Below are positions 28,416 to 46,473 of a stretch of 64,000 bases of DNA, piece after piece. Position 1 is the first letter of the stretch, and every line of letters starts with the position of its first letter. The translations under genes were made by a program, and so were the position numbers. Location of the stretch: positions 9,895-73,894 of the IMG/VR virus record IMGVR_UViG_3300032061_000001; one strand, given 5' to 3'. Under the pieces are notes generated by a model, which ran no database searches, was not told the origin of the DNA, and was given only the letters and a program-made list of their open reading frames with translations. This DNA comes from a virus.

Positions 28416-29567
28416 TTATGGTATCGCCAATTTTGTGACTACGATATTTGTTATATTCCAAATACTCGTTGATGCAATCGTTTGCACCGTTGAGGGTGAC
28501 AATGTTTCTTCATCATAATAATCCACATTATCTGGTTGATTATCGCCAGAAATCGCAGCTTGCCATTCAGTAGGTATGATTGATTCCCCTTGAACCAAAT
28601 TATAAACATAAGTCGTTATTTTCGATTGAATCTCTAATTCGACGGCTGCTTCCTCTTCAACTGACAATATTTTGGTTGGAACATAATCAACCGAAAACGC
28701 TATATCTTCTGTTGTTACCGCTTGAATTACTACATTTTGACCGGCCCCCTGCTTTCCATCCAGCTCATCGTTTCCGGTTAATTCTAATTGTATGGCATCA
28801 ATAAGTTCTATAGATGGAACTCCCAGACTCGACTGGATAGACATAATGATTTCGCCATAGCGATCCGGGTCTAATAATTCGGGGTCAGTATGTTTCCATG
28901 GGAATGACATCAGGACATCTTTGACACTTTCAATGATTGCCCCATTAATATCAGTAAGAGTCACATTCTCTGCTGCTGTTTTTAATGCAGGCGCTGTCCC
29001 ATGTGCTTTAGCTTTTAATGCCCCTTCAATTCTTAATGTTCTGGCATAATCAGTCTCTTCATCCGTACCATTATTGATTATTAATGGATTACTCCCGGAT
29101 TGATAACTGGCCGTTAGAAATAAAGTATCGACAGAAAAAGATATATCCGCTCCAGAGTTATCCGCCAAGATTTGCACATTTTTTGTCTCGATATTTGTAA
29201 AGGTTACTTCTGCAACAACTTCTGCTACTTTATTACCCGTCTCACTGGAATATACAGGTTCTCCGATGGGGATTACAATTGATTGTGTTGAGGTAATATT
29301 CAAATTACCAGAAGCTCTACTGGCTGGAATTGGTTCCACGCCAGCCAGTAAAAACATCGTCTCTCGTGCTTGTTTTTTTACTTCTGCTTCAAGAGTATCT
29401 TGAGAAATTGCGGCAACATCGCATAATCCCTCTCCTAGACTTCTTAATGGTGCTGCAATGGTGAAATCAAATCCCTCTTCATTCTGAATATCTGACGGGG
29501 TCCTGGCGGTAAGAGCCTCTATAAACTTCTGCAGGAAATCATCTTTTGTTTTTAGATTTGTCGCCAT
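28416..29567 (-). CDS. baseplate J-like protein
   Basis: DF......RSL.E, A.RASG, NGTDEETD...R....L....GT..AL. Confidence 0.85.
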   Translation of the reverse strand: MATNLKTKDDFLQKFIEALTARTPSDIQNEEGFDFTIAAPLRSLGEGLCDVAAISQDTLEAEVKKQARETMFLLAGVEPIPASRASGNLNITSTQSIVIPIGEPVYSSETGNKVAEVVAEVTFTNIETKNVQILADNSGADISFSVDTLFLTASYQSGSNPLIINNGTDEETDYARTLRIEGALKAKAHGTAPALKTAAENVTLTDINGAIIESVKDVLMSFPWKHTDPELLDPDRYGEIIMSIQSSLGVPSIELIDAIQLELTGNDELDGKQGAGQNVVIQAVTTEDIAFSVDYVPTKILSVEEEAAVELEIQSKITTYVYNLVQGESIIPTEWQAAISGDNQPDNVDYYDEETLSPSTVQTIASTSIWNITNIVVTKLAIP

Positions 29568-30322: not shown

Positions 30323-31219
30323 CTATTTCGGTATTTTTATAAATTCCCCGGGGGATAATACATAACCATCTATATATTGATAAATTTGTACCACATGATT
30401 AGGCGAGATATCAAATAGCAGTGCATCTTTAAGTTGTATAGTTTTTAAATCCTCGGATATCCAAAGTATTTCCGTCTTTTGCTGCTCCAAATTATTTAAA
30501 TCTCTGGCGTTATTTGTTATTAAGATTTTTCCACCGGCCTTCACCCCTGTGGCTCCGACTTGTTTTGTAATACCGGTATATATTATAGATGATTCCCCCG
30601 CCAATGAAGAGCTTCCAATAACTGTGGCTTGCAATATGCTCGGAATATGAAATCTTTCAGTAATATAGGGATAGAGCAATTTATTAATAGCGATAATAGT
30701 TAATTTCCCAACCCCTACTCTTGCAATGAAATTATCAAGGCTCGTGTCTGTTGAAACAAGTCTGATTTCGCGAGTGTTAGCTGAGAACGAAACATCTTCT
30801 ATGGAAGCTGCGGATACAAATTTAGTAAAATTATTTATGAATGCAAGCAATTCATCGGTTGTAGGAATAGTAATGTCATTGATAATGTCTTTTATATCAG
30901 ATTGTAATTTTGCTAAATCAGTATCGGACATTGTTAAAGGATCCGCAGATGCAAGGAAATTATCAATTCTTGTTATGGTTTCATCCGGAATATCAATGGG
31001 GGGCTTCAATCCAGCTGCAGAAATTCCGGCATCCGAAGCAATGGTTTTAACAGCATCCGATTGCAAAAAATCATCAATTGCGTTTGGATATTTTTCTTCA
31101 AAATTTGTTGATCTTGCCAATTGATAAAACCCGGATCCCATTTGAATCGTTTGCTGGTTTAGCTTATTGACGGTGTCTACAAATTCAGACCCGAGAAGTA
31201 ATTCTTCGGTATCGGCCAT
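30323..31219 (-). CDS. baseplate-region structural protein
   Basis: position; IIAINKLLYPYI and C-terminal LSPGEFIKIP resemble a split LysM/tail-X-like motif. Confidence 0.45.
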   Translation of the reverse strand: MADTEELLLGSEFVDTVNKLNQQTIQMGSGFYQLARSTNFEEKYPNAIDDFLQSDAVKTIASDAGISAAGLKPPIDIPDETITRIDNFLASADPLTMSDTDLAKLQSDIKDIINDITIPTTDELLAFINNFTKFVSAASIEDVSFSANTREIRLVSTDTSLDNFIARVGVGKLTIIAINKLLYPYITERFHIPSILQATVIGSSSLAGESSIIYTGITKQVGATGVKAGGKILITNNARDLNNLEQQKTEILWISEDLKTIQLKDALLFDISPNHVVQIYQYIDGYVLSPGEFIKIPK

Positions 31220-32211
31220 TAGAATTGAGCGATTCTTTGTATTTTATTGAGAGTATTATTGTTTGAAGCGACAAAAGCATTCAAATCCTGTACAACCGAA
31301 TTTGGAAACGTTTTGTAAGTCAAAACTGTGTTCATCATTTGGTTTATACTATTTGAAATATTGACCAGTTTATTTGTGAAAGTGGAAAGCGGTCCTACTA
31401 CCGGTAATTCATCGAGGGTTGGTAACCTAAAAGAAGCTGCAAGCTGCAAAATATCATCAGGGATCTCTTTGAAATTCGCATCGAGTTTATCTTCTATTAC
31501 AGTTGCATTTATGCGCCATCCATAAGTGTAAGGAGCTTCTTTACTTATAAATAGTTGGAGATCTTTTGGCTGAATAGATAGAATAGATTTTGCCAATTCA
31601 TCGACGACTATAAATTCATATCCTGCTTTATTGGGGATGCCACCATATCCTATTTTTGGTTTTGATCCGTCCCCTCCTCCTATCAACAAACTTATTAACC
31701 CATTTATGTTTAGCTTCGTCTCTTGATAATATCCCTTGGTTACCCAGATTTGAGAATATGGATCTTTTAAATCAAAATATAATTTAAAAAATCTCTCTAA
31801 ATTGTCTGCCCAATCTTTCGGAGAGTATTTCGTCAGGGAGCTTTCTAGATCTAATGCGGTAGATAAAATGACATTGCGATCGGCTGCGGTCGGGAAGATT
31901 CCAGTCATTGAAATATCTTTCAATCCAACGCCATAGGCTTCGGAAGAGATACCCGCGATAGCATTAACAGTTGATTGTCGCCCTGTAATCGTAGAACTAT
32001 ATTGTTGATAATAGAACGTTCTTCCCTCGAAATTAATAGGAAATTTGAATTCAGCGACTTGGGTTTGTTCTGCTACTGTCTTTTTCTGAGTATCAAAACG
32101 ATCTGATAACTTTGGGACAGACCCCTGATCCTTATTGGTAGAAGATCTTCCAAGGTCTTTTTTTTCGAGGATACGTAAAATTAGGTTGGGATATCCGAAT
32201 TCGATGGCCAT
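31219..32211 (-). CDS. putative tail tube initiator / baseplate protein
   Basis: position; FPINFE..Q..G...ISMTG pattern. Confidence 0.45.
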   Translation of the reverse strand: MAIEFGYPNLILRILEKKDLGRSSTNKDQGSVPKLSDRFDTQKKTVAEQTQVAEFKFPINFEGRTFYYQQYSSTITGRQSTVNAIAGISSEAYGVGLKDISMTGIFPTAADRNVILSTALDLESSLTKYSPKDWADNLERFFKLYFDLKDPYSQIWVTKGYYQETKLNINGLISLLIGGGDGSKPKIGYGGIPNKAGYEFIVVDELAKSILSIQPKDLQLFISKEAPYTYGWRINATVIEDKLDANFKEIPDDILQLAASFRLPTLDELPVVGPLSTFTNKLVNISNSINQMMNTVLTYKTFPNSVVQDLNAFVASNNNTLNKIQRIAQF

Positions 32212-32287
32212 TGCAAAACCGATTGATGTTTGTAATATCTATCATTATTCGGTTTTGCTGAGGGAGAGTCAAAGGGAAGCTTTTAGA

Positions 32288-32599
32288 TTAATAGAATGGA
32301 TGCTCTTTTAACCAGTCCTCATATCTCCAATTTTTGCTGAAGTCTTCCTGATATCTCTTTTCATAAAACTTCAGATCAATTTCCAGAATTCTGACATTTC
32401 TGGAAATAGCGTCAGAATATGGATTCTCTCTTCTCGGATCTCCCCGATAATTTCTGGATGCCCTTCTAAGATCATTAACATATTCCATCTGGAGGAATAT
32501 TTCATCGACCAATTTAAGTTTATCCCAGTCAGTTGTTTGAGACAAAACAGAAGTTGCCGAAAGCAATAAAACAATAAGGAGTATAATCAACTTTTTCAT
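32288..32599 (-). CDS. exported hypothetical protein
   Basis: signal peptide; part of the inserted island. Confidence 0.55.
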   Translation of the reverse strand: MKKLIILLIVLLLSATSVLSQTTDWDKLKLVDEIFLQMEYVNDLRRASRNYRGDPRRENPYSDAISRNVRILEIDLKFYEKRYQEDFSKNWRYEDWLKEHPFY

Positions 32600-32613
32600 A
32601 TTTACCTTTGGTT

Positions 32614-32991
32614 TTAATTCGGGGGGTCAATCCAAGAAATATAGGGCCCCACCTTTATTCCATATACTAAAATTTCACGATTAGGGGAAAAAACGGTCAC
32701 CCTATAATGATCCTGCTTGAATATCTCTTCACAAATATTAACAAATTCTTTTCCATAAACTATTGCTTTATGTAACCTGGTTGATCTCGGCATAATGATA
32801 ACGAGAGATAATTCTTTTTCATGCTCAAAAACAGCGATTTCGAATAACCCAGTATATGCTGTCATTCTTGCAAGCGCCAGCATTTTTTCGGGGGTCCTTG
32901 GTTCCTCAATATGGTTGATAATGACCTTTCTATATTGTGGATCTCGGCCGCATGCTGACAATAATAAAATTAAAAGAATTAACTTTTTCAT
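32614..32991 (-). CDS. lipoprotein
   Basis: MKKLILLILLLSA-C lipobox; GAGGAGG RBS. Confidence 0.6.
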   Translation of the reverse strand: MKKLILLILLLSACGRDPQYRKVIINHIEEPRTPEKMLALARMTAYTGLFEIAVFEHEKELSLVIIMPRSTRLHKAIVYGKEFVNICEEIFKQDHYRVTVFSPNREILVYGIKVGPYISWIDPPN

Positions 32992-33002
32992 CTTATTCCT
33001 CC

Positions 33003-33314
33003 TCATCTGAATAGTTCTATTTGTTTTCGGATTGTAGTTTCTTCTTCATCGGTTTCGATAATGAACGCGTTAATCGATTCCCCGAATTTTGGATCGATTT
33101 CGCGTGCTCTGACAGCCGACCAATATTCGAAATAACCATTGATTAGAATATAAGATTCGAATCCTGATCTCCTGACAATCAGCGGATTGATGACACATTG
33201 TGCAACCAATATCAAACGGGCTGCATGGTCCAATTTTAACTCAGAAAAAGTTGTTCTGGATATATGGCATTGGACGTTCTCGACTAGGATTATCGATGGT
33301 AGTATTCGTCTCAT
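33003..33314 (-). CDS. ParB/Srx N-terminal-domain-only protein
   Basis: INPLIVRR....Y..ING.FEY..AVRAREIDP..GE.INAFI. Confidence 0.7.
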   Translation of the reverse strand: MRRILPSIILVENVQCHISRTTFSELKLDHAARLILVAQCVINPLIVRRSGFESYILINGYFEYWSAVRAREIDPKFGESINAFIIETDEEETTIRKQIELFR

Positions 33315-33417
33315 ATTATTTCCTTTTTGTAACATACTGGCAGCACTTTGAATTCACAGGACCGATTACTCTGGTTTATATCGGCTTTGCCAGTTTGTGC
33401 CACCGATATGCAGGGAG

Positions 33418-33618
33418 TTACTTTTTATTCAATATCTCAATAACATCATCACAGCTAATAATTGAAACTGTTTCAGAGCATTCCATACAACCGAGATAAA
33501 AAAATGTTTGTACATCATTTGTGTTCAACCTTCCCTGGACAACTCCATTTGAAATCGTATTTCCATAACCCCATTCTGATTTATTACTTCCACAGTTAGG
33601 GCATTTTATTTTTTCCAT
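33418..33618 (-). CDS. small Zn-ribbon protein
   Basis: CPNC..CMECSET. Confidence 0.55.
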   Translation of the reverse strand: MEKIKCPNCGSNKSEWGYGNTISNGVVQGRLNTNDVQTFFYLGCMECSETVSIISCDDVIEILNKK

Positions 33619-33635
33619 CTCGCATCCTGTTAGTT

Positions 33636-33869
33636 TTATTCCCAATTCATCAAAGAAATTAGGAATTCGTTAGCAGTGCTCATCAATTCGCGTTCTGAAT
33701 TGATCTGTTCGAGAACGCGCCTATAATCGGATGAACCAACCACATTGATGAAATCTGTGTTGGTTTCCATCGAATCCATGATTATTTTTAGAAAAGAAAG
33801 CCTTGATCGTGCCTGATCAATAGCCTTCTTCATATTGTCGTAGAGCTGTTGCTTGCTTGGTTTAGACAT
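33636..33869 (-). CDS. hypothetical helical protein
   Basis: start reset to MSKPSK behind AAAGGAAAA. Confidence 0.55.
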   Translation of the reverse strand: MSKPSKQQLYDNMKKAIDQARSRLSFLKIIMDSMETNTDFINVVGSSDYRRVLEQINSERELMSTANEFLISLMNWE

Positions 33870-33886
33870 TGTTTTCCTTTTTTGAA

Positions 33887-34093
33887 ACACACCGGCAACC
33901 ATGCGGGGAATCGAACCCATGCCGACTCGAACGGCTTTGGTTGCTACCAGCACCCCACGATGCCTTGGTTTTACCCAAGCTGCGCCTACAGATGCATAGC
34001 TGCCGGTGTGTATTGTTATTGAATATCATCAGAGCACACAGATTTTACATTGCTGTCTGGCTATGTGCTTAGATGATAGCCGGATTGCTCCGG
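33887..34093 (-). ncRNA. putative structured ncRNA with two T-loop hairpins
   Basis: 18-bp closing stem enclosing six hairpins, plus an upstream stem domain and GCAA tetraloops; see findings. Confidence 0.65.
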
Positions 34094-34100
34094 GTGGCTG

Positions 34101-34328
34101 TTAGTGTCCCACAGGAATTGCTTTCAATTCCTGTGCGGTAAAAATTACCTGCTTCATCAGAGTCTCACCTACGGGAAGGTAAGCCCCATATATCAATTCT
34201 GCTCCAAACTCTTTGCTGACGGATCTCAGAGTCCTGTTATATTCGGATTCTGATATTTTCCCTGACTTCAACAGTTTGGCTGCATCCATCAGGGTTTGTT
34301 CCATATGCATTGTTTTCGTGTATTCCAT
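34101..34328 (-). CDS. hypothetical protein, first gene of the inserted island
   Basis: start reset to MEYTKT; the upstream part of the ORF is promoter sequence. Confidence 0.5.
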   Translation of the reverse strand: MEYTKTMHMEQTLMDAAKLLKSGKISESEYNRTLRSVSKEFGAELIYGAYLPVGETLMKQVIFTAQELKAIPVGH

Positions 34329-34359
34329 CTTTTTTCTCTCTGTTGAGACTTGTTTGACT

Positions 34360-34411
34360 AATGTAATTATAGAATACTTTAATACTTTATAATATGTCAA
34401 TAAAATAATGC
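34360..34411 (-). promoter_or_regulatory. sigma70-like promoter cassette, twin of 50730-50781
   Basis: TTGACA-18-TATTCT with tandem TAAAGTAT boxes. Confidence 0.75.
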
Positions 34412-34428
34412 ACTCATTATAAAAAATT

Positions 34429-35190
34429 TTATACTAATATGGGATGATTGAATATCTGATAGATCTTATCAATCACTTCGGCTTTAGCTGCTCTTTCTAT
34501 CCCTTCTTTAATATAGGGTTCCGCATAGTTTACTGTCGCACCGATCACATCATTCGCCTGAACTCCGGGATGCCACCATGATGATGGGTCTGAATTTTCT
34601 GAGATAACTCTGAATGTTCTGAATTGGGAATGTCTTCCTTTTTCATCCCTTGCGTTCGTCATTCCAGCATAGGGTCCATTCTGCCATTCATATCCTCGAG
34701 AATTCACTAATCCAAAATCGCTCGGATCTTCTTTTGTTCCCATCTGATCGGTGAACTTTACTCCACTTTTCGCCATCGCTGCTTTATGAACAGAAGGCGA
34801 CATGACTTTACCGATGTTTCCTGAAGTACCAGGAATTGTATGGCGGAAGGGGATAATAAAATATTTTTTGCCGCTTTTTCCGGTCCTGGCTTTATCATTT
34901 TTCAAAAATCCAGGTTTCATATCGAAAGGTCCATAGCCATTTTGGATTCTTAACGCTTCTTCAATTCCCTGAGATCCCATAGAAATAATTGCTTGTAATG
35001 GAATCCCTGAAAACAGGCTTCCACCGATCATTTCTATTACATCACCCTGCAATCCAAGAAAGGATTGTAATCCAGTATTGTTTATCTGTCTGGACATTCC
35101 GGAAAGCATACCGCCATTATAACAAGAAGCCCAAACGTTTCTTACTGCATTGGCTAATCTTTCGAGTTCATCATAGGTATAATTTTGCAT
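34429..35190 (-). CDS. neck/tail-completion virion morphogenesis protein
   Basis: G..PFDMKPG..YFIIPFRH..FRTFRVISENSDPSSWWHPG motif of myovirus neck-region proteins. Confidence 0.6.
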   Translation of the reverse strand: MQNYTYDELERLANAVRNVWASCYNGGMLSGMSRQINNTGLQSFLGLQGDVIEMIGGSLFSGIPLQAIISMGSQGIEEALRIQNGYGPFDMKPGFLKNDKARTGKSGKKYFIIPFRHTIPGTSGNIGKVMSPSVHKAAMAKSGVKFTDQMGTKEDPSDFGLVNSRGYEWQNGPYAGMTNARDEKGRHSQFRTFRVISENSDPSSWWHPGVQANDVIGATVNYAEPYIKEGIERAAKAEVIDKIYQIFNHPILV

Positions 35191-35192
35191 AA

Positions 35193-36371
35193 TTAATTTG
35201 GACCTAATGTAGTACCAGATTCCCCTTCTGCCGGTGCCGTAAAATTATGAGTATGATCAGATACCGGCTCTGACATTGCCCCAACATTTTTAAGATCCAT
35301 ACCATGCAAATCCGCTATATTTGTTCCGGAATCATAGGATGGGGAAGATCCGGGACCTGGTGTTCCTGCTGATGCTCCTGGTAATGGTTTGCTTGTATTG
35401 TATCCAAGATCTCCAAGCGTGAGATGATTAATTAATGAAATAGCTGTGGTCATCCAATCCGCGATAATATCTCCTACAGCTTCGATCATCCCACCTATCG
35501 TCAAGTTACCTGTCATTTCCGATTCCGGGGAATCAACATAGAAAAAAGATGATGCATTTTCTTCTATATCAGGGGAAGTATCTTTTATTTTGGTTGTTGC
35601 ATCTGAATTTATATTATTGGCTTCAAGATTAATATTTCCTATTGCTGATAAATTTATGTCTTCAGCACTTACAATGTTAATGGTACCCGCCGCGGTATAT
35701 TCTGAATAAGAGCCTGAAGGATGCTCAAGTCTAGCAACGATTTCACCGCCATAATCAATTGAATTCTTTTCATGCGTTGGAAAAGGAATATCCAGGTCCA
35801 TATCATTAAGAGTTTTTCCTGCTCTCAATTTTAATCCGGATGGATGCCTGAACTGAATGTTTCCATCAGCATCATGGATATAATATGAGCCGTCATCATG
35901 GCGAACTATTTTTCTACCAGGTTTCGAATTGTTTAAAAGAACTGAGCTTGGATTCAAAAATCTAAAGGAGCTTGCTGCAAATCCATATCCATTTCCAACC
36001 GATATTTTATAAACCAGGGCCTCGATATGATTGTCCAAAACATAATTATCGGAGGTTGGGTCGGCATTGCTTGAATTCGGGTTTCTTATTGTTGTGATAT
36101 CCTGAATCTTCTTTTCGGTTGCTATTTTTGGCGTCTGAATGGTACCGGTTTCTTCGAAAAAGTTTCCATAAACAACAACCCCCTGATATTCAATTAATCC
36201 ATTTGATATTGGTCTGGAGACATCCATCGTCTGTGATTTTGGATACCATGCGGTTACAAGAGCTGGAAAAGGGTGATCTTCATCTATTCTTCCAAGGTAT
36301 CCTTCTTCCATCCGTGATCTTGATTTAAAATTCCCTTTCTCATCAGTTCGTGCTCTATGAAATATTTGCAT
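35193..36371 (-). CDS. baseplate central spike (gp5/gpV-like)
   Basis: repeated HPSG beta-helix units; C-terminal HTH metal-binding apex. Confidence 0.75.
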   Translation of the reverse strand: MQIFHRARTDEKGNFKSRSRMEEGYLGRIDEDHPFPALVTAWYPKSQTMDVSRPISNGLIEYQGVVVYGNFFEETGTIQTPKIATEKKIQDITTIRNPNSSNADPTSDNYVLDNHIEALVYKISVGNGYGFAASSFRFLNPSSVLLNNSKPGRKIVRHDDGSYYIHDADGNIQFRHPSGLKLRAGKTLNDMDLDIPFPTHEKNSIDYGGEIVARLEHPSGSYSEYTAAGTINIVSAEDINLSAIGNINLEANNINSDATTKIKDTSPDIEENASSFFYVDSPESEMTGNLTIGGMIEAVGDIIADWMTTAISLINHLTLGDLGYNTSKPLPGASAGTPGPGSSPSYDSGTNIADLHGMDLKNVGAMSEPVSDHTHNFTAPAEGESGTTLGPN

Positions 36372-41941: not shown

Positions 41942-43678
41942 TTAGGTGTTTAGAAATTCAGTGGTACCAAACCCGAATTCAGGAATTGCAGGAACGACCA
42001 AATTGTGAACAGTATAATCGAATGTGATCCCCGAGGTAGAAAATTCAATATCACCCCAATCAGTGACCCAATAAACTGATTTATTAGCCTGCGATTCCAG
42101 CACTCTTCTAATATAAGTCTTTCCTTCAGCATTAAAAGGAGCCACACCACTTTGCTGAAATCCAGACATCCAGCTCTCAAGCTTTCTGGCGATATCATTA
42201 TCAGAAAGCATCGCACAACGAACGCGAGAAGGAACTGTCATCATTGGTTCAATAGATGACTTTTTGGTCGTAAAAAATTGCCGTATTCGGGTAGTGGTAT
42301 CTGTAATTGCGAAGATAACGGATGCCTGATGCAGTTTTTTACGGTCAGCTTCACTATAAGAAGTGGATGCCTTAATTGCCGTTACTGTTTGGTTAGTCAA
42401 TACACGACTTGCCAGGCCACCCAAGAACATGGATGCAGCTCTTACCGCAAAATAACATGGCAATTGAGAACGCTCTATTCCCTGTTGATTAATGGCATCC
42501 AGACCATCACCAAAGAATTGAGAATATTCCGAATCATGAGTATTTGAGATCGTCACAATTGCATCGGCATCTGACGGTTTGGCAATAAACCCTCCATTCC
42601 ATCCATAACCACCATGGGCTGAAATAAATGATTGCCTCCTCTTGCCACGCTTATCCGGTTGATTCATTTTGACAGCATGTTGCTCATCCAGAACCATAAT
42701 AGCGGCTGTTAAAGTAGCATCATAGGGAGCGGGGATACCATCTGCGATTGGACAGGTGACTGCAAGAAACTGTTTTTCGAGTTCGTCATAAACCTTACCC
42801 CATTGGGTCGCATCAGGATCAACTCCGGAAGTTCCGCCAGCGAGATAAAATTCGAAATCCTCCACCATGACTGTCGCGGTCGCGGCCAATGTTGCATCGA
42901 CGTCAACGATTTCTTTATCCAGAAAATCATAAAGTTGTTTCAGGTCCGCTTTGAGTATAAGTCCGGCTGTAATAGCATTCTCGCCAACCAAATGGTCGAA
43001 TAATCCTAACGTCGATTGGTTATCAGAAGTGGTTACATCTTTTACAATGGTGATCGTGTCATCACCATTTTCAATAGCGTTGATTAGGTCTATCAGCTTC
43101 GGATAATCACTGAATTTATAGTCAACCAATGCTCCGGTTAAACCGACCGATATTGTCGTCGCGGTAATTGTGACGAATCCAGAAGCCATCGTAATGGTCA
43201 TAATCGGGTTATCAATCGTTTTTGTATATGTATCGGGGGACCATGGGAATGTTACAGTTGCGAGTTTCGATGCTAGACTTACTTTAATGCCGTTACCAGC
43301 CGGGCCATAGATTTTACTACCTAATGTTATTGCTGATACTCCTCCGAGCGCTGTTGTTTTAATGATTCCAGTTGCCTGAACTAATGCGCGGGGATTAAAA
43401 AACCTGACATCTTGGGCAGGAGAAAGAGATGGGGATGGATTAAATGCCCCATATGCTGCCTCAACCACTGGCCCCTGGTCACCAAATACTTTCTGGACTT
43501 CGGAAACATTTGTCGCCGCGACATATTCTCCAAATGCAGGTCCGTTAATGCCCTCAGCAATAATCATTAGCGCATTGACGCCAGATGGATTCGGGTTTGC
43601 ATTTCCTACCGTTACGACTTTGGAATATACGCCAGGATCGAAAATGTCTTTTCCATAAAAACTATAAATCTGAGCCAT
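41942..43678 (-). CDS. tail sheath protein
   Basis: F.GK.I..PGVY N-terminus, LAGGTSG; start at 43678 (TAATG coupling). Confidence 0.88.
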   Translation of the reverse strand: MAQIYSFYGKDIFDPGVYSKVVTVGNANPNPSGVNALMIIAEGINGPAFGEYVAATNVSEVQKVFGDQGPVVEAAYGAFNPSPSLSPAQDVRFFNPRALVQATGIIKTTALGGVSAITLGSKIYGPAGNGIKVSLASKLATVTFPWSPDTYTKTIDNPIMTITMASGFVTITATTISVGLTGALVDYKFSDYPKLIDLINAIENGDDTITIVKDVTTSDNQSTLGLFDHLVGENAITAGLILKADLKQLYDFLDKEIVDVDATLAATATVMVEDFEFYLAGGTSGVDPDATQWGKVYDELEKQFLAVTCPIADGIPAPYDATLTAAIMVLDEQHAVKMNQPDKRGKRRQSFISAHGGYGWNGGFIAKPSDADAIVTISNTHDSEYSQFFGDGLDAINQQGIERSQLPCYFAVRAASMFLGGLASRVLTNQTVTAIKASTSYSEADRKKLHQASVIFAITDTTTRIRQFFTTKKSSIEPMMTVPSRVRCAMLSDNDIARKLESWMSGFQQSGVAPFNAEGKTYIRRVLESQANKSVYWVTDWGDIEFSTSGITFDYTVHNLVVPAIPEFGFGTTEFLNT

Positions 43679-43938
43679 TATTTTCTCCTGAAGGTTGTAT
43701 CCCAAACTTTACGATAATTTTCTTCGGTGTCAACGGGAGGAACAACTTTTGGGAAAGCGGTAAATACCCCCGCATGTATATCAATTCCCCTCAATTCCTC
43801 TTTTATTTTTTTGATAAAGATTCTGGATGAAATCTTTGGGGGCTCTTGTTTGGATACTTTTTTTTCCTCACCTGTCCCAAAGAATTCTTTTACATCTCCA
43901 ATTACTTCATCAACTTTTGTAGTCGTTTGTTTTGCCAT
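43678..43938 (-). CDS. small hypothetical protein
   Basis: 86 aa, coupled to the sheath gene. Confidence 0.55.
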   Translation of the reverse strand: MAKQTTTKVDEVIGDVKEFFGTGEEKKVSKQEPPKISSRIFIKKIKEELRGIDIHAGVFTAFPKVVPPVDTEENYRKVWDTTFRRK

Positions 43939-44547: not shown

Positions 44548-46473
44548 TTAAAGACTGAATCCGGGAACGTTACGAACAATAAAATTACGTTGTGGTGCCC
44601 AGACTGCCAGACCTGCTATATCTACAATTGCCCATTGGCGAGTCGTCCCATAATTGATGTCATACAGCGGGACTTCAAATGCCGGTGTCAATGAGATGTG
44701 CGCAATATCCAGCGGGTTGTTTGAAATGAAAAACATATCCGAAGTTCCAGGAATTTTCTGGTTGTAGTCGGTATATACAGTATCATCGGTTCCATTGATC
44801 GGAACTTTGGCAATACATTTTAATGCTGAATCAGCGGTTTCCCCGGCATTTCCACGATAGATCAGAAAATATCTGGCGGGAGAGACAGTATAACCACCGA
44901 CCGTGCCACCAGCGAATGCAGCATCATAGGGGATGGTAATATCGACTACTTCAGTCGCGCCGACTGGATCTGGGGTAGTACCTTCAGATGTTGTCACAAG
45001 AGAATCTGAAACATCACTCTCACCGTGATCGTTTACAACTGATACTCGATATGTATAAGATCCTACCGGAGTATTCTTTGCTTCATCCACAGTTGCCCTA
45101 GCAATTGCTGTCACATCGGTGGCGGCAAGAGGCCAGGTTATCGCATTTTTGGAAACATCTGCGGCCGGTGTCCATGTGTCATTGGCGGTCAAATTGATTG
45201 TTTTTGAACGCTTGAACATGAACGTTCCAAGATCAGTCACGAACCCGGAAAAGTTCTGACCATAATAGAGGGCCGCTTGTTCATATTTTTCGATCATAAC
45301 CCGTTGTTTACCATCAACAACAGTGCTGATATTGTTGGCAACGCCGTAATCCATCAACACGGAATATTTACCGGTGATGACACCCCCGGGAATATGACCG
45401 TTGACAATCAGTTTCTCGGCTACTTCACGGAAGATGTTCAGAGGATCAGCTGAATCGCTGAACGCTACCCCATTCCAATCAATAACATGATCCGGATAAC
45501 CAGTTGTGGCATCCAGCATTTGGTTTAACATGCCCTGGACTTCAAGAACAGTTGTGCCGTCTTTATTAATCAGGGAATCTCCATAAAGAAGATTGTGGTT
45601 CTTCCCTAGGTTGAATTCCAGAATGCGAAGTTCTCGTTCCAATGCCAGCGGGTTAAGATTGATCAATTTCTGCTTATTGGCCAGCAACATTTCAGTTACA
45701 GCGCATCGAATACCACGCTGTACCAATGTATTTGTCAACCGGTCCATCAATTGACCACCACCATATACCGGAGTTTTACCTTCCCCGAATCCCATGGTAT
45801 GCTTTCCATAACCGACACCATAAGTTTTTAACCGGGGGACTTCAGGTACGATATTTGGCGTTATCGCCGTGGGTATCGATTGTAGTGCGGTTGCGTCATC
45901 ATTCGACAACATGATACGCTGAATTTTTTGGGATAGGTTTTCCTCTAAGAAATTGTAAAATGCTCCGGGATCTCCGGGAGCTGCAGATGTTCCCAAAATG
46001 GATTTTGCCATATCGGCATATTGCTGATATTCACCATCCGTCCAGGATTTCATTAATTTCTTATACTTCGGGTCTTCCGGGTTCTTCTGTTGTTGCATTT
46101 GCTCTGCGGATAGCAGAGATTTCATCATGCTGCCAATTGCTGGCTGCAGGGACCCGGGTCCATATTTGGCATTGTAAAGGCTTTCGCTCGCTAAACCGAG
46201 ATGAATTCTCAAAGCTTCATCGAGAGATTTCCCGGGATAACTTTCTTCAAGAAGATCGTCAAATGATTTCACAAATGGTTCTACCGGCCCCAAAAAGTTA
46301 GGGGGAAGTTCCGCTTTTCGCTGATTAGCTTCCAGAACGCTAATTTTATTTTCCATTCGGGCTGTCTTTAGTCTAACAGCCTCGTCAATCGACTTTTTCA
46401 GCAAGGTCATGTTCTTTTCTAATTGAACATCCATGCTTTCTGTAGTCGGTTTTCCATCTAATTTATCAGCCAT
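44548..46473 (-). CDS. major capsid protein with long pro-region and Ig/FN3-like insertion
   Basis: follows protease and scaffold; ENL, LLYGDS..I, EVQG; YTYRVSVVNDHGES..YFLIYRG insertion as in Herelleviridae-like capsids. Confidence 0.85.
   Translation of the reverse strand: MADKLDGKPTTESMDVQLEKNMTLLKKSIDEAVRLKTARMENKISVLEANQRKAELPPNFLGPVEPFVKSFDDLLEESYPGKSLDEALRIHLGLASESLYNAKYGPGSLQPAIGSMMKSLLSAEQMQQQKNPEDPKYKKLMKSWTDGEYQQYADMAKSILGTSAAPGDPGAFYNFLEENLSQKIQRIMLSNDDATALQSIPTAITPNIVPEVPRLKTYGVGYGKHTMGFGEGKTPVYGGGQLMDRLTNTLVQRGIRCAVTEMLLANKQKLINLNPLALERELRILEFNLGKNHNLLYGDSLINKDGTTVLEVQGMLNQMLDATTGYPDHVIDWNGVAFSDSADPLNIFREVAEKLIVNGHIPGGVITGKYSVLMDYGVANNISTVVDGKQRVMIEKYEQAALYYGQNFSGFVTDLGTFMFKRSKTINLTANDTWTPAADVSKNAITWPLAATDVTAIARATVDEAKNTPVGSYTYRVSVVNDHGESDVSDSLVTTSEGTTPDPVGATEVVDITIPYDAAFAGGTVGGYTVSPARYFLIYRGNAGETADSALKCIAKVPINGTDDTVYTDYNQKIPGTSDMFFISNNPLDIAHISLTPAFEVPLYDINYGTTRQWAIVDIAGLAVWAPQRNFIVRNVPGFSL

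Follow-up and report, generated by a model that had tools for sequence, protein, structure and literature searches.

A 64 kb stretch of viral DNA, called the window below, comes from IMG/VR virus record IMGVR_UViG_3300032061_000001, a contig of 73.9 kilobases (kb) that is estimated to be ~64% complete. Here, the minus strand of positions 33887–34011 is predicted to specify a non-coding RNA of ~125 nucleotides (nt), in which an uninterrupted 18-base-pair (bp) stem closes a multiloop of six contiguous hairpins. Modelling indicates that this RNA is a real, unusually dense and strand-specific structure made from transfer RNA (tRNA) modules, which matches no family in the libraries searched, and that it is probably a non-decoding tRNA look-alike. 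The best explanation, put forward tentatively, is that it is a tRNA-derived, non-decoding RNA with two elbows, each made of a T-loop and a GG loop, which would be excised from an operon and target, in trans, a protein able to recognise the tRNA elbow or T-arm. It starts from what the analysis shows, namely the predicted fold and its strand, the content of T-loops and GG loops, the context of an island and the failure of tRNA and Rfam models to call the RNA. The sole sequencing run listed for the stretch is of DNA, from a salt marsh metagenome that is the probable source sample; RNA runs are not listed.

The RNA lies in a 234 nt non-coding gap, flanked by a 75-codon open reading frame (ORF) that stops at 34101 and a 76-codon ORF that starts at 33866. 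The gap also holds an upstream structured part. In 5′ to 3′ order, the elements are as follows, where R1 is a covariance model that is introduced further on.

34080–34093, minus strand: hairpin CCGGA-GCAA-UCCGG with a GNRA tetraloop (folds)
34024–34078, minus strand: bipartite long hairpin of 7 bp, a 2x2 internal loop and 9 bp, with an inner ACA-GCAA-UGU (fold)
33994–34011, minus strand: 5′ strand of the closing stem, the inner 7 nt of which, GCUAUGC, are acceptor-like (fold, sequence)
33980–33991, minus strand: hairpin 1, CUGU-AGGC-GCAG, with a GG loop, at the D-arm position (fold)
33964–33979, minus strand: hairpin 2, CUUGG-GUAAAA-CCAAG, with a 6-nt loop, at the anticodon-arm position (fold)
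33950–33963, minus strand: hairpin 3, GCAUC-GUGG-GGUGC, with the second GG loop (fold)
33938–33949, minus strand: hairpin 4, UGGU-AGCA-ACCA (fold)
33921–33935, minus strand: T-arm 1, GCCG-UUCGAGU-CGGC, at the variable-arm position (fold; R1 match)
33905–33918, minus strand: T-arm 2, GGG-UUCGAUU-CCC, plus one C (fold; R1 match)
33887–33904, minus strand: 3′ strand of the closing stem (fold)

A preliminary description of this DNA, made from its letters alone, had proposed the 18-bp stem with two G-U pairs and the six hairpins, and both were recovered. ACACACCGGCAGCUAUGC (34011–33994) pairs with GCAUGGUUGCCGGUGUGU (33904–33887) at 18 of 18 positions, two of them G-U, and the hairpins are reproduced in the minimum-energy structure of 33887–34011, which is the same as the centroid structure. 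All 43 of the 43 predicted pairs are standard, with no mismatches. The folding energy is −63.9 kcal/mol as compared to −44.3 ± 3.8 kcal/mol for dinucleotide shuffles (z −5.1; 0 of 200), and the plus strand of the same interval reaches −48.4 kcal/mol (z −3.25), a deficit of 15.5 kcal/mol relative to the minus strand. This deficit, together with a total of four G-U pairs, fixes the minus strand as the one that folds. When the upstream part is included (33880–34100), the energy is −95.5 kcal/mol (z −7.55). The upstream part alone (34020–34100) gives −31.1 kcal/mol (z −5.68) and is thus structured in its own right; it contains CCGGA-GCAA-UCCGG and the second domain with its ACA-GCAA-UGU, as had been suggested. 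The RNA was also described as GC-rich in an AT-rich genome, which agrees with a guanine-plus-cytosine (GC) content of 0.50–0.52 at the RNA versus about 0.37 in the surroundings.

The loops point to tRNA. The last two hairpins carry the T-loop consensus exactly, that is, U-U-C-G-A-N-U on a G-C closing pair, as the preliminary description had it. Four copies of the 9-mer GTTCGANTC are present in the window versus 1.85 expected, and two of the four copies are in the RNA, on the same strand and 16 nt apart, with a perfect stem under each. In the fold, T-arm 2 adjoins the closing helix across a single spacer nucleotide, as in a tRNA. In addition, GG is present in two further loops, AGGC and GUGG, and these can be read directly from the letters, in line with the earlier account. 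In the tRNA elbow, G18 and G19 dock on Ψ55 and C56.

The order of the parts also follows the frame of a tRNA, as given here.

Acceptor: GCUAUGC/GCAUGGU
tRNA positions 8–9: A8, U9
D position: CUGU-AGGC-GCAG
Anticodon position: CUUGG-GUAAAA-CCAAG, with a 6-nt loop
Variable region: hairpins 3 and 4 and T-arm 1
T-arm: GGG-UUCGAUU-CCC

Because this layout (acceptor-like helix, D-position, anticodon-position and variable arm) is that of the tRNA frame, the RNA is most likely tRNA-derived. Like canonical tRNA (RF00005), it has the T-loop U54-U55-C56-R57-A58 closed by G53-C61, and it has this twice (G-UUCGAGU-C and G-UUCGAUU-C). It differs from canonical tRNA in that the 7-nt anticodon loop with U33 is replaced by the 6-nt GUAAAA on a 5-bp stem. 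It also differs in the absence of a single-stranded 3′ end, as the U-GCC after the 7-bp segment is paired and is part of a further 11 bp. The tRNA frame of the RNA cannot decode and is without an acceptor end.

ARAGORN finds 0 tRNA or transfer-messenger RNA (tmRNA) genes in the window, and allowing introns at its default threshold does not change this. At thresholds of 70–80%, its output is noise and the RNA is called at 70% only, in a different and implausible register. Rfam 15, in a scan that included tRNA, tRNA-Sec, tmRNA, YrlA, ROOL and GOLLD, gives no match at the gathering score across the whole window and, at E values up to 10 over 33600–34400, only a chance match to SNORD74 on the opposite strand. 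The claim that the RNA cannot be matched to a known family stands against Rfam 15, even at E up to 10. The related claim that it is not a tRNA holds in one sense, since neither ARAGORN nor Rfam calls it, and needs qualifying in another, as its parts are arranged in a tRNA frame and most likely descend from a tRNA.

No homologue of the RNA was found among 50,697 GenBank phages using blastn, or at the syntenic loci of relatives using nhmmer and blastn. Four sequence patterns were likewise without a homologue: exact as well as degenerate ones were run on IMG/VR, and a degenerate one on a set with a single genome for each prokaryote species. A single-sequence covariance model of the RNA, R2, likewise finds no relative in 97 loci, in two related phage records (one of them complete) or in the record of locus L099, which is described below. 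By these searches, the RNA is a singleton so far.

Several other identities were considered and, judged by the sequence alone, rejected. A retron non-coding RNA does not fit, as a reverse transcriptase gene was not recognised in the island and the hairpins are all short. The hairpins are not sequence repeats of each other, as type III antitoxin repeats would be, and an attP tRNA fragment is not indicated, as the paired stems are complete and the site is in the tail module. A 55-codon ORF runs across the structure; a ribosome site for it is absent and its GC content is unlike that of the genes.

The two adjacent T-loops provided a search pattern (two T-loops 3–14 nt apart, taken from the RNA under study), which was applied to IMG/VR. 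The pattern matched at least 116 contigs, and about half of these belong to one family, referred to here as the tandem-T-arm family and represented by model R1. Its plan is an outer helix, P1, followed by a GG-loop hairpin (mostly NCGGN) and then a second helix, P2, around a core. P2 encloses a UGMRG joiner, T-arm 1 (4 bp), AA, T-arm 2 (9 bp), a GCA-NGG-UGC mini-hairpin and an AAWA linker. Two T-arms and two GG loops are found in every member: the GG of the mini-hairpin is invariant, and the first hairpin has GG in its loop in 47 of 54 cases by automated folding, with most of the other seven showing GG there by eye.

The family fold is supported by covariation. A 23-member MAFFT alignment has 83.7% of its cells paired and 126 double-sided changes versus 49 in shuffles, with a covariation score of 0.53 versus 0.10–0.15 with partners slid. 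A 67-hit alignment fitted to the model, which leans towards structure, has 86.8% of cells paired and 488 double-sided changes versus 161 in shuffles. As this covarying family always joins two T-arms with two GG loops, the comparison indicates that the 2+2 design (two T-arms, two GG loops) is selected in phages.

There are 48 R1 members in IMG/VR loci, with scores of 40–86 bits (these include L010, L019, L020, L054 and L056), and eight in contigs of bacterial metagenome-assembled genomes. A genome scan for a T-arm plus GGTGCAA returned mostly ordinary tRNAs, and true family members in 8 of 100 loci. Family elements are mostly located between tRNA genes in phage tRNA clusters, an example being L010, where the element lies between two tRNA-Arg genes. 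Caulobacter phage RW (MK929790; L253:1518–1593) has a member of 71.4 bits, at about 56.81–56.89 kb, unannotated and 77 nt downstream of tRNA-Val, and the cultured Caulobacter phages KcrB, RLK and GB2A each have a full, unannotated member beside tRNA-Val, as in RW. Neither ARAGORN nor Rfam 15 calls family members. A shared protein neighbour was not found, as the ORFs within 3.5 kb of the 116 hits cluster only among near-identical phages. Literature searches found no description of tandem-T-arm phage RNAs; a 2023 catalogue of 10,006 candidate RNAs from IMG/VR may hold the family, and its main text has no description of it (PMC10690425). The family, which can be tested at the bench as it has dozens of members, strong covariation and one member in cultured phage RW, is the more solid by-product of this work. 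Separately, two of the tRNA clusters that hold family members also contain ROOL RNAs (L098:2102–2714, 302 bits, and L032:2902–3497, 274 bits).

How does the RNA relate to this family? With filters off, R1 has one significant match in the window, at 33935–33895 (26.4 bits, E 5e-6, model positions 14–64). Here, GCCGUUCGAGUCGGC-AU-GGGUUCGAUUCCC-C-GCAUGGuUGC aligns with the R1 core of T-arm, T-arm and GG mini-hairpin. According to this alignment, the first 10 nt of the 3′ strand of the closing stem, GCAUGGUUGC, could alternatively form the mini-hairpin GCA-UGG-UGC; in the minimum-energy fold, this element is part of the long stem instead. As the match is local and of 26.4 bits, versus the 40–86 bits that members score over their full length, the alignment places the RNA outside the family. 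By comparison, tandem-T-arm RNAs that are not members score 23–37 bits with R1, and a lone T-arm scores 10–14 bits. The RNA resembles the family in being phage-borne, in having adjacent consensus T-arms followed by GCA-NGG-UGC, and in having two GG loops for its two T-loops. It differs from the family in lacking the P2 register, the UGMRG joiner, the 9-bp stem of T-arm 2 and the AAWA linker, in lacking the GG hairpin that sits 5′ of and outside P2, and in having four extra hairpins between the closing stem and T-arm 1. In addition, it does not share the location between tRNA genes.

The remaining pattern matches are of mixed kinds. In all of them, the 3′ strand of an acceptor-like closing helix comes straight after the second T-arm, and the first T-arm takes the position of the variable arm. 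True class II tRNAs are among them (tRNA-Leu in L015 and tRNA-Ser in L045), as are tRNA-frame RNAs that gene finders miss (L043, L044, L060, L085, L097, L099 and L109). The closing helix in this tRNA-frame set is 5–11 bp in length, as compared to 18 bp in the RNA under study. One of the set, at L085:~560–640 (IMGVR_UViG_3300028832_000119), consists of an 8-bp closing stem around three tandem T-arms and nothing else.

The closest likeness in layout is at L099:650–790 (IMGVR_UViG_3300022555_000024), a six-hairpin, tRNA-frame RNA with an 11-bp closing stem, which is missed by ARAGORN. Its D-like arm has the loop AAUGGUU, and the loop UUGCCCA may be that of an anticodon arm; besides two T-arms, there are two extra hairpins, of which one has a CGG loop. 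Ahead of it stands a 15-bp hairpin, and a tRNA is absent from the 7.9-kb locus. As in the RNA under study, the 5′ strand of the closing stem is followed, after 2 nt, by four hairpins, with GG loops in the first and third; then come a spacer, two T-arms in succession, 1 nt and the 3′ strand of the closing stem, and a long hairpin lies upstream. The two differ in that L099 has a possible anticodon loop of 7 nt, where the RNA has 6 nt. This is a likeness of design, from a single example.

Another group of matches comes from near-identical phages (L016, L033, L040, L048, L064, L072, L078, L080, L083, L113 and L122), in which the element is closed by GCUGGUG/CACCAGC. The L016-type element lies 36 nt upstream of a conserved 129-amino-acid (aa) ORF with a ribosome site, a placement like that in the window.

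The genes around the RNA form a contractile-tail module, all on the minus strand, and the RNA itself is in an accessory island within it. The features that define this context are listed below.

44548–46473, minus strand: major head protein (family searches)
41942–43705, minus strand: tail sheath (family searches)
35193–36371, minus strand: baseplate assembly protein (family searches)
28416–29567, minus strand: baseplate wedge (family searches)
32212–34428, minus strand: accessory island of 2.2 kb, with six small ORFs and the RNA, between two conserved baseplate-region genes
34371–34400, minus strand: predicted promoter-like site TTGACA-18-TATTCT, with TATAAT further on at 23 nt (consensus scan)
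34101–34328, minus strand: first island ORF, 75 aa, the stop of which is 7 nt before the first hairpin
33636–33866, minus strand: next ORF, 76 aa, the purine-rich ribosome site of which begins 8 nt past the stem

The earlier claim that the island had been inserted among tail genes is upheld, as the neighbours are tail and baseplate genes and three relatives are without the 2.2-kb insert: in L003, L004 and L008, the homologues of 34429–35190 and 31219–32211 are only 73–119 nt apart. In a further relative, L006, the same slot holds an unrelated insert of 764 nt that is headed by a similar promoter. Judged by these comparisons, the slot between the two baseplate-region genes looks like a hot spot for accessory genes, and the island has the usual appearance of a phage accessory ("moron") slot. 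The inserts at L006:4257–5019 and at 32212–34428 of the window both open with a TTGACA...TATAAT-like sequence, and in both a similar sequence stands shortly ahead of the next conserved gene.

The preliminary description had also placed the RNA behind a consensus-like promoter. This needs a correction, as the RNA does not follow it directly: the sole promoter-like site on the strand is ~300 nt upstream, with the 75-codon ORF in between. A scan of the minus strand of 32100–34600 found no terminator-like site. As the promoter-like site precedes the 75-codon ORF and a terminator is absent, the RNA is internal to the operon, as its second element. The closing stem is followed by UUUCAAAAAAGG, without a U tract, and an intrinsic terminator or simple attenuator, which would be recognised by a GC-rich hairpin plus U tract, was rejected.

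Among the island proteins, the longer 34101–34400 frame of the first ORF has only a sub-threshold match to SHOCT_2 (E 0.0066) and no informative family in Pfam or PHROGs. The 76-aa protein has no family in Pfam or PHROGs, no relative in IMG/VR and no convincing neighbour in the Atlas (best score 0.78). Elsewhere in the island, there is one sub-threshold zinc-ribbon match and one sub-threshold ParB_N match. A second non-coding gap, at 33314–33417, contains a hairpin AUAUCGG...CCGAUAU ahead of the ORF with the ParB_N match. The last two island ORFs, 32288–32599 and 32614–32991, begin MKKLIILLIVLLLSATSVLSQ and MKKLILLILLLSACG, and by eye these N-termini look like a signal peptide and a lipoprotein signal of the sort found in accessory proteins of the superinfection-exclusion type. 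tRNA genes are absent from the window and from the whole 73.9-kb contig, and the complete relative has a single tRNA-Ala, which by eye is unlike the RNA. From these genomes, the phage lineage is poor in tRNAs.

In the proposed mechanism, the 7 bp at the inner end of the long stem (GCUAUGC/GCAUGGU) and T-arm 2 would form an acceptor/T "top half". Hairpin 1 (AGGC), at the place of the D-arm, would dock its GG on T-loop 2, and hairpin 2 would stand at the place of the anticodon arm, sealed by its 6-nt loop. The variable region would have grown to three hairpins, the last of which is T-arm 1, with hairpin 3 (GUGG) serving as the second GG partner. The outcome would be a compact RNA with two tRNA-like elbows, from which the decoding and acceptor ends are absent. 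This RNA would be transcribed as part of the island operon and excised through cuts in the 18-bp stem and the upstream bipartite hairpin, for which RNase III is the most plausible enzyme. Acting in trans, it may then serve as a decoy, sponge or scaffold by occupying a host or phage protein that recognises the elbow or T-arm. In this scheme, the transcription, the processing, the tertiary docking and the target are drawn from tRNA structure and phage biology. The functional suggestion in the preliminary description, that the RNA could be a decoy for anticodon nucleases or other tRNA-binding proteins, is reasonable.

The idea of a double-elbow mimic is plausible, and it gains indirect support because the covarying family and the RNA under study have the same 2+2 make-up. 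A tRNA-derived RNA is further supported by the genuine phage class II tRNAs of L015 and L045, which also have a T-arm-like variable arm, as do the tRNA-frame RNAs of L044, L060, L099 and L109 that ARAGORN misses. The setting also speaks for the best explanation, as the accessory island has its own promoter-like site and small ORFs for a putative lipoprotein and a putative secreted protein. A number of points weigh on the other side. The GG loops are tight tetraloops, unlike D-loops of 7–11 nt; T-stem 2 is just 3 bp; and the acceptor-like helix extends 11 more bp, without a free 3′ end. The scans found no promoter or terminator of the RNA's own, and a candidate protein partner was found neither in the island nor in the contig. 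As homologues were not found, no stem of the RNA has covariation support. The R1 match is not independent, as the family was found via a pattern from this same RNA, and the likeness to L099 is one of layout only, with no link by MAFFT or R2.

A broader form of the idea is that the RNA and the tandem-T-arm family make up one undescribed phage "double-elbow" class, which would bind two copies or domains of a factor that recognises the tRNA elbow and so protect phage translation during infection. The factor could be a defence nuclease that cleaves tRNA, RNase P or an enzyme that modifies T-arms. Here, the module would have left the tRNA cluster and then been rebuilt in the accessory island as a counter-defence RNA. 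Such a class is considered improbable.

The chief rival to the double-elbow RNA acting in trans is an element that acts in cis on the processing or stability of the island's polycistronic mRNA, and this is possible, though rather unlikely. Its stems would be cleavage sites of the RNase III type (or RNase P type), cleavage would part the first ORF from the downstream ORFs, the structured ends would shield the messages, and the tRNA parts would recruit the enzyme. Long perfect stems are typical of the intergenic RNase III sites of phages, for which T7 and lambda are the textbook examples. Consistent with this, the RNA is operon-internal and without promoter or terminator of its own, and it fits closely between the genes, starting 7 nt past one stop codon and ending 8 nt before the next ribosome site. 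The tandem-T-arm elements of the L016 type and of L027, L100 and L107 are also just upstream of an ORF with a ribosome site. However, a processing site does not require as many as six perfect hairpins, nor a pair of consensus T-loops and another of GG loops. Translational control is not obvious either, as the structure does not include the ribosome site of the next ORF, and the flanking tail genes are expressed in relatives without the RNA. Another rival is a phage tRNA gene, such as one of class II with duplicated arms, that has been rearranged or is decaying and is carried in the island as a functionless passenger. This would explain tRNA-like parts that no model calls, a singleton with no relatives in the collections searched, and a place in a variable slot. 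An unselected relic in a phage of 37% GC should, however, show mismatches, and instead all 43 predicted pairs are standard and mismatch-free, both T-loops are intact, the structure is 20 kcal/mol better than shuffles and the GC content is about 14 points above that of the genome. A relic is therefore doubtful, about as much so as the single double-elbow class.

Two readings that would keep the RNA closer to a known type have still less in their favour. A tRNA that is aberrant and yet works, in which the variable region has expanded and the anticodon loop has 6 or 8 nt, and which is processed out of the long stem, charged and used for example in frameshifting or recoding, would account for the 7-bp acceptor-like segment, the T-arm and the GG hairpin at the D position. 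Phage tRNA-frame RNAs that gene finders miss do exist, and allo-tRNAs are known that combine a short T-stem with a longer acceptor stem and a long variable arm (PMC5389517). Nevertheless, the GUAAAA loop is 6 nt, and U33 is missing from the 8-nt loop that would result if one pair opened; A8 stands in place of U8; the T-stem is 3 bp plus a spacer; and CCA and a single-stranded 3′ end are absent, the helix extending 11 bp. Moreover, ARAGORN calls it only at the 70% threshold in that different, implausible register, and the Rfam tRNA model has no match at E up to 10. Such a tRNA is very unlikely. Slightly less probable again is a Y-RNA-like partner, of the YrlA type, of the ring protein Ro60/Rsr, in which the long stem would bind Ro and the hairpin cluster would be the tRNA-like module. 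A long terminal stem plus tRNA-like module is indeed the plan of YrlA (PMC4201824). On the other hand, RF02553 has no match even at E up to 10, the stem is perfect, without the bulge and the GNCGAA motif, and the arm order differs, that of YrlA being V, T, acceptor-like hairpin and D (PMC4201824). The TROVE/Ro60 domain (PF05731) is absent from the 73.9-kb contig, in a search that did match control genomes; as the contig is ~64% of the genome, a distant gene is possible.

Non-decoding, tRNA-like RNAs of phages are a long-standing loose end, and to our knowledge the function of RNAC and RNAD of phage T4 has been unknown for fifty years. Defence nucleases that target tRNA, and the counter-measures of phages, are an active field. 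RNAC and RNAD, the stable RNA species 1 and 2, are located at the end of the T4 tRNA cluster (AF158101, 70908–71171). Like the RNA under study, they are non-decoding phage RNAs, stable in their case, and RNAC ends in a tRNA-like T-arm with an acceptor-like end. RNAC differs in having a single T-arm (13.7 bits with R1). The T4 RNAs show no similarity to the RNA, and both were rejected as relatives of the tandem-T-arm family, as R1 shows no relation. YrlA (RF02553) has one T-arm, a permuted arm order and a bulged, Ro-binding stem with GNCGAA, and lies beside the Ro60 gene (Chen et al. 2014, PMC4201824). The RNA shares with it a terminal stem bearing a non-decoding, tRNA-like module with a T-arm and a GG (D-like) loop, and YrlA occurs in phages too; the RNA differs from it in having two T-arms and in lacking GNCGAA, the bulge and a Ro60 gene in the contig. 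According to Mukai et al. (PMC5389517), allo-tRNAs of bacteria and phages have acceptor/T-stem configurations of 8/4 or 9/3. They resemble the RNA in offsetting a short T-stem (3–4 bp) with a longer acceptor helix and in having a long variable region, and they differ in that they decode and have both a free acceptor end and an anticodon loop of the normal kind, neither of which the RNA has. If the double-elbow explanation is true, an RNA that displays two elbows without an anticodon would represent a novel type of counter-measure or scaffold, one that is protein-free.

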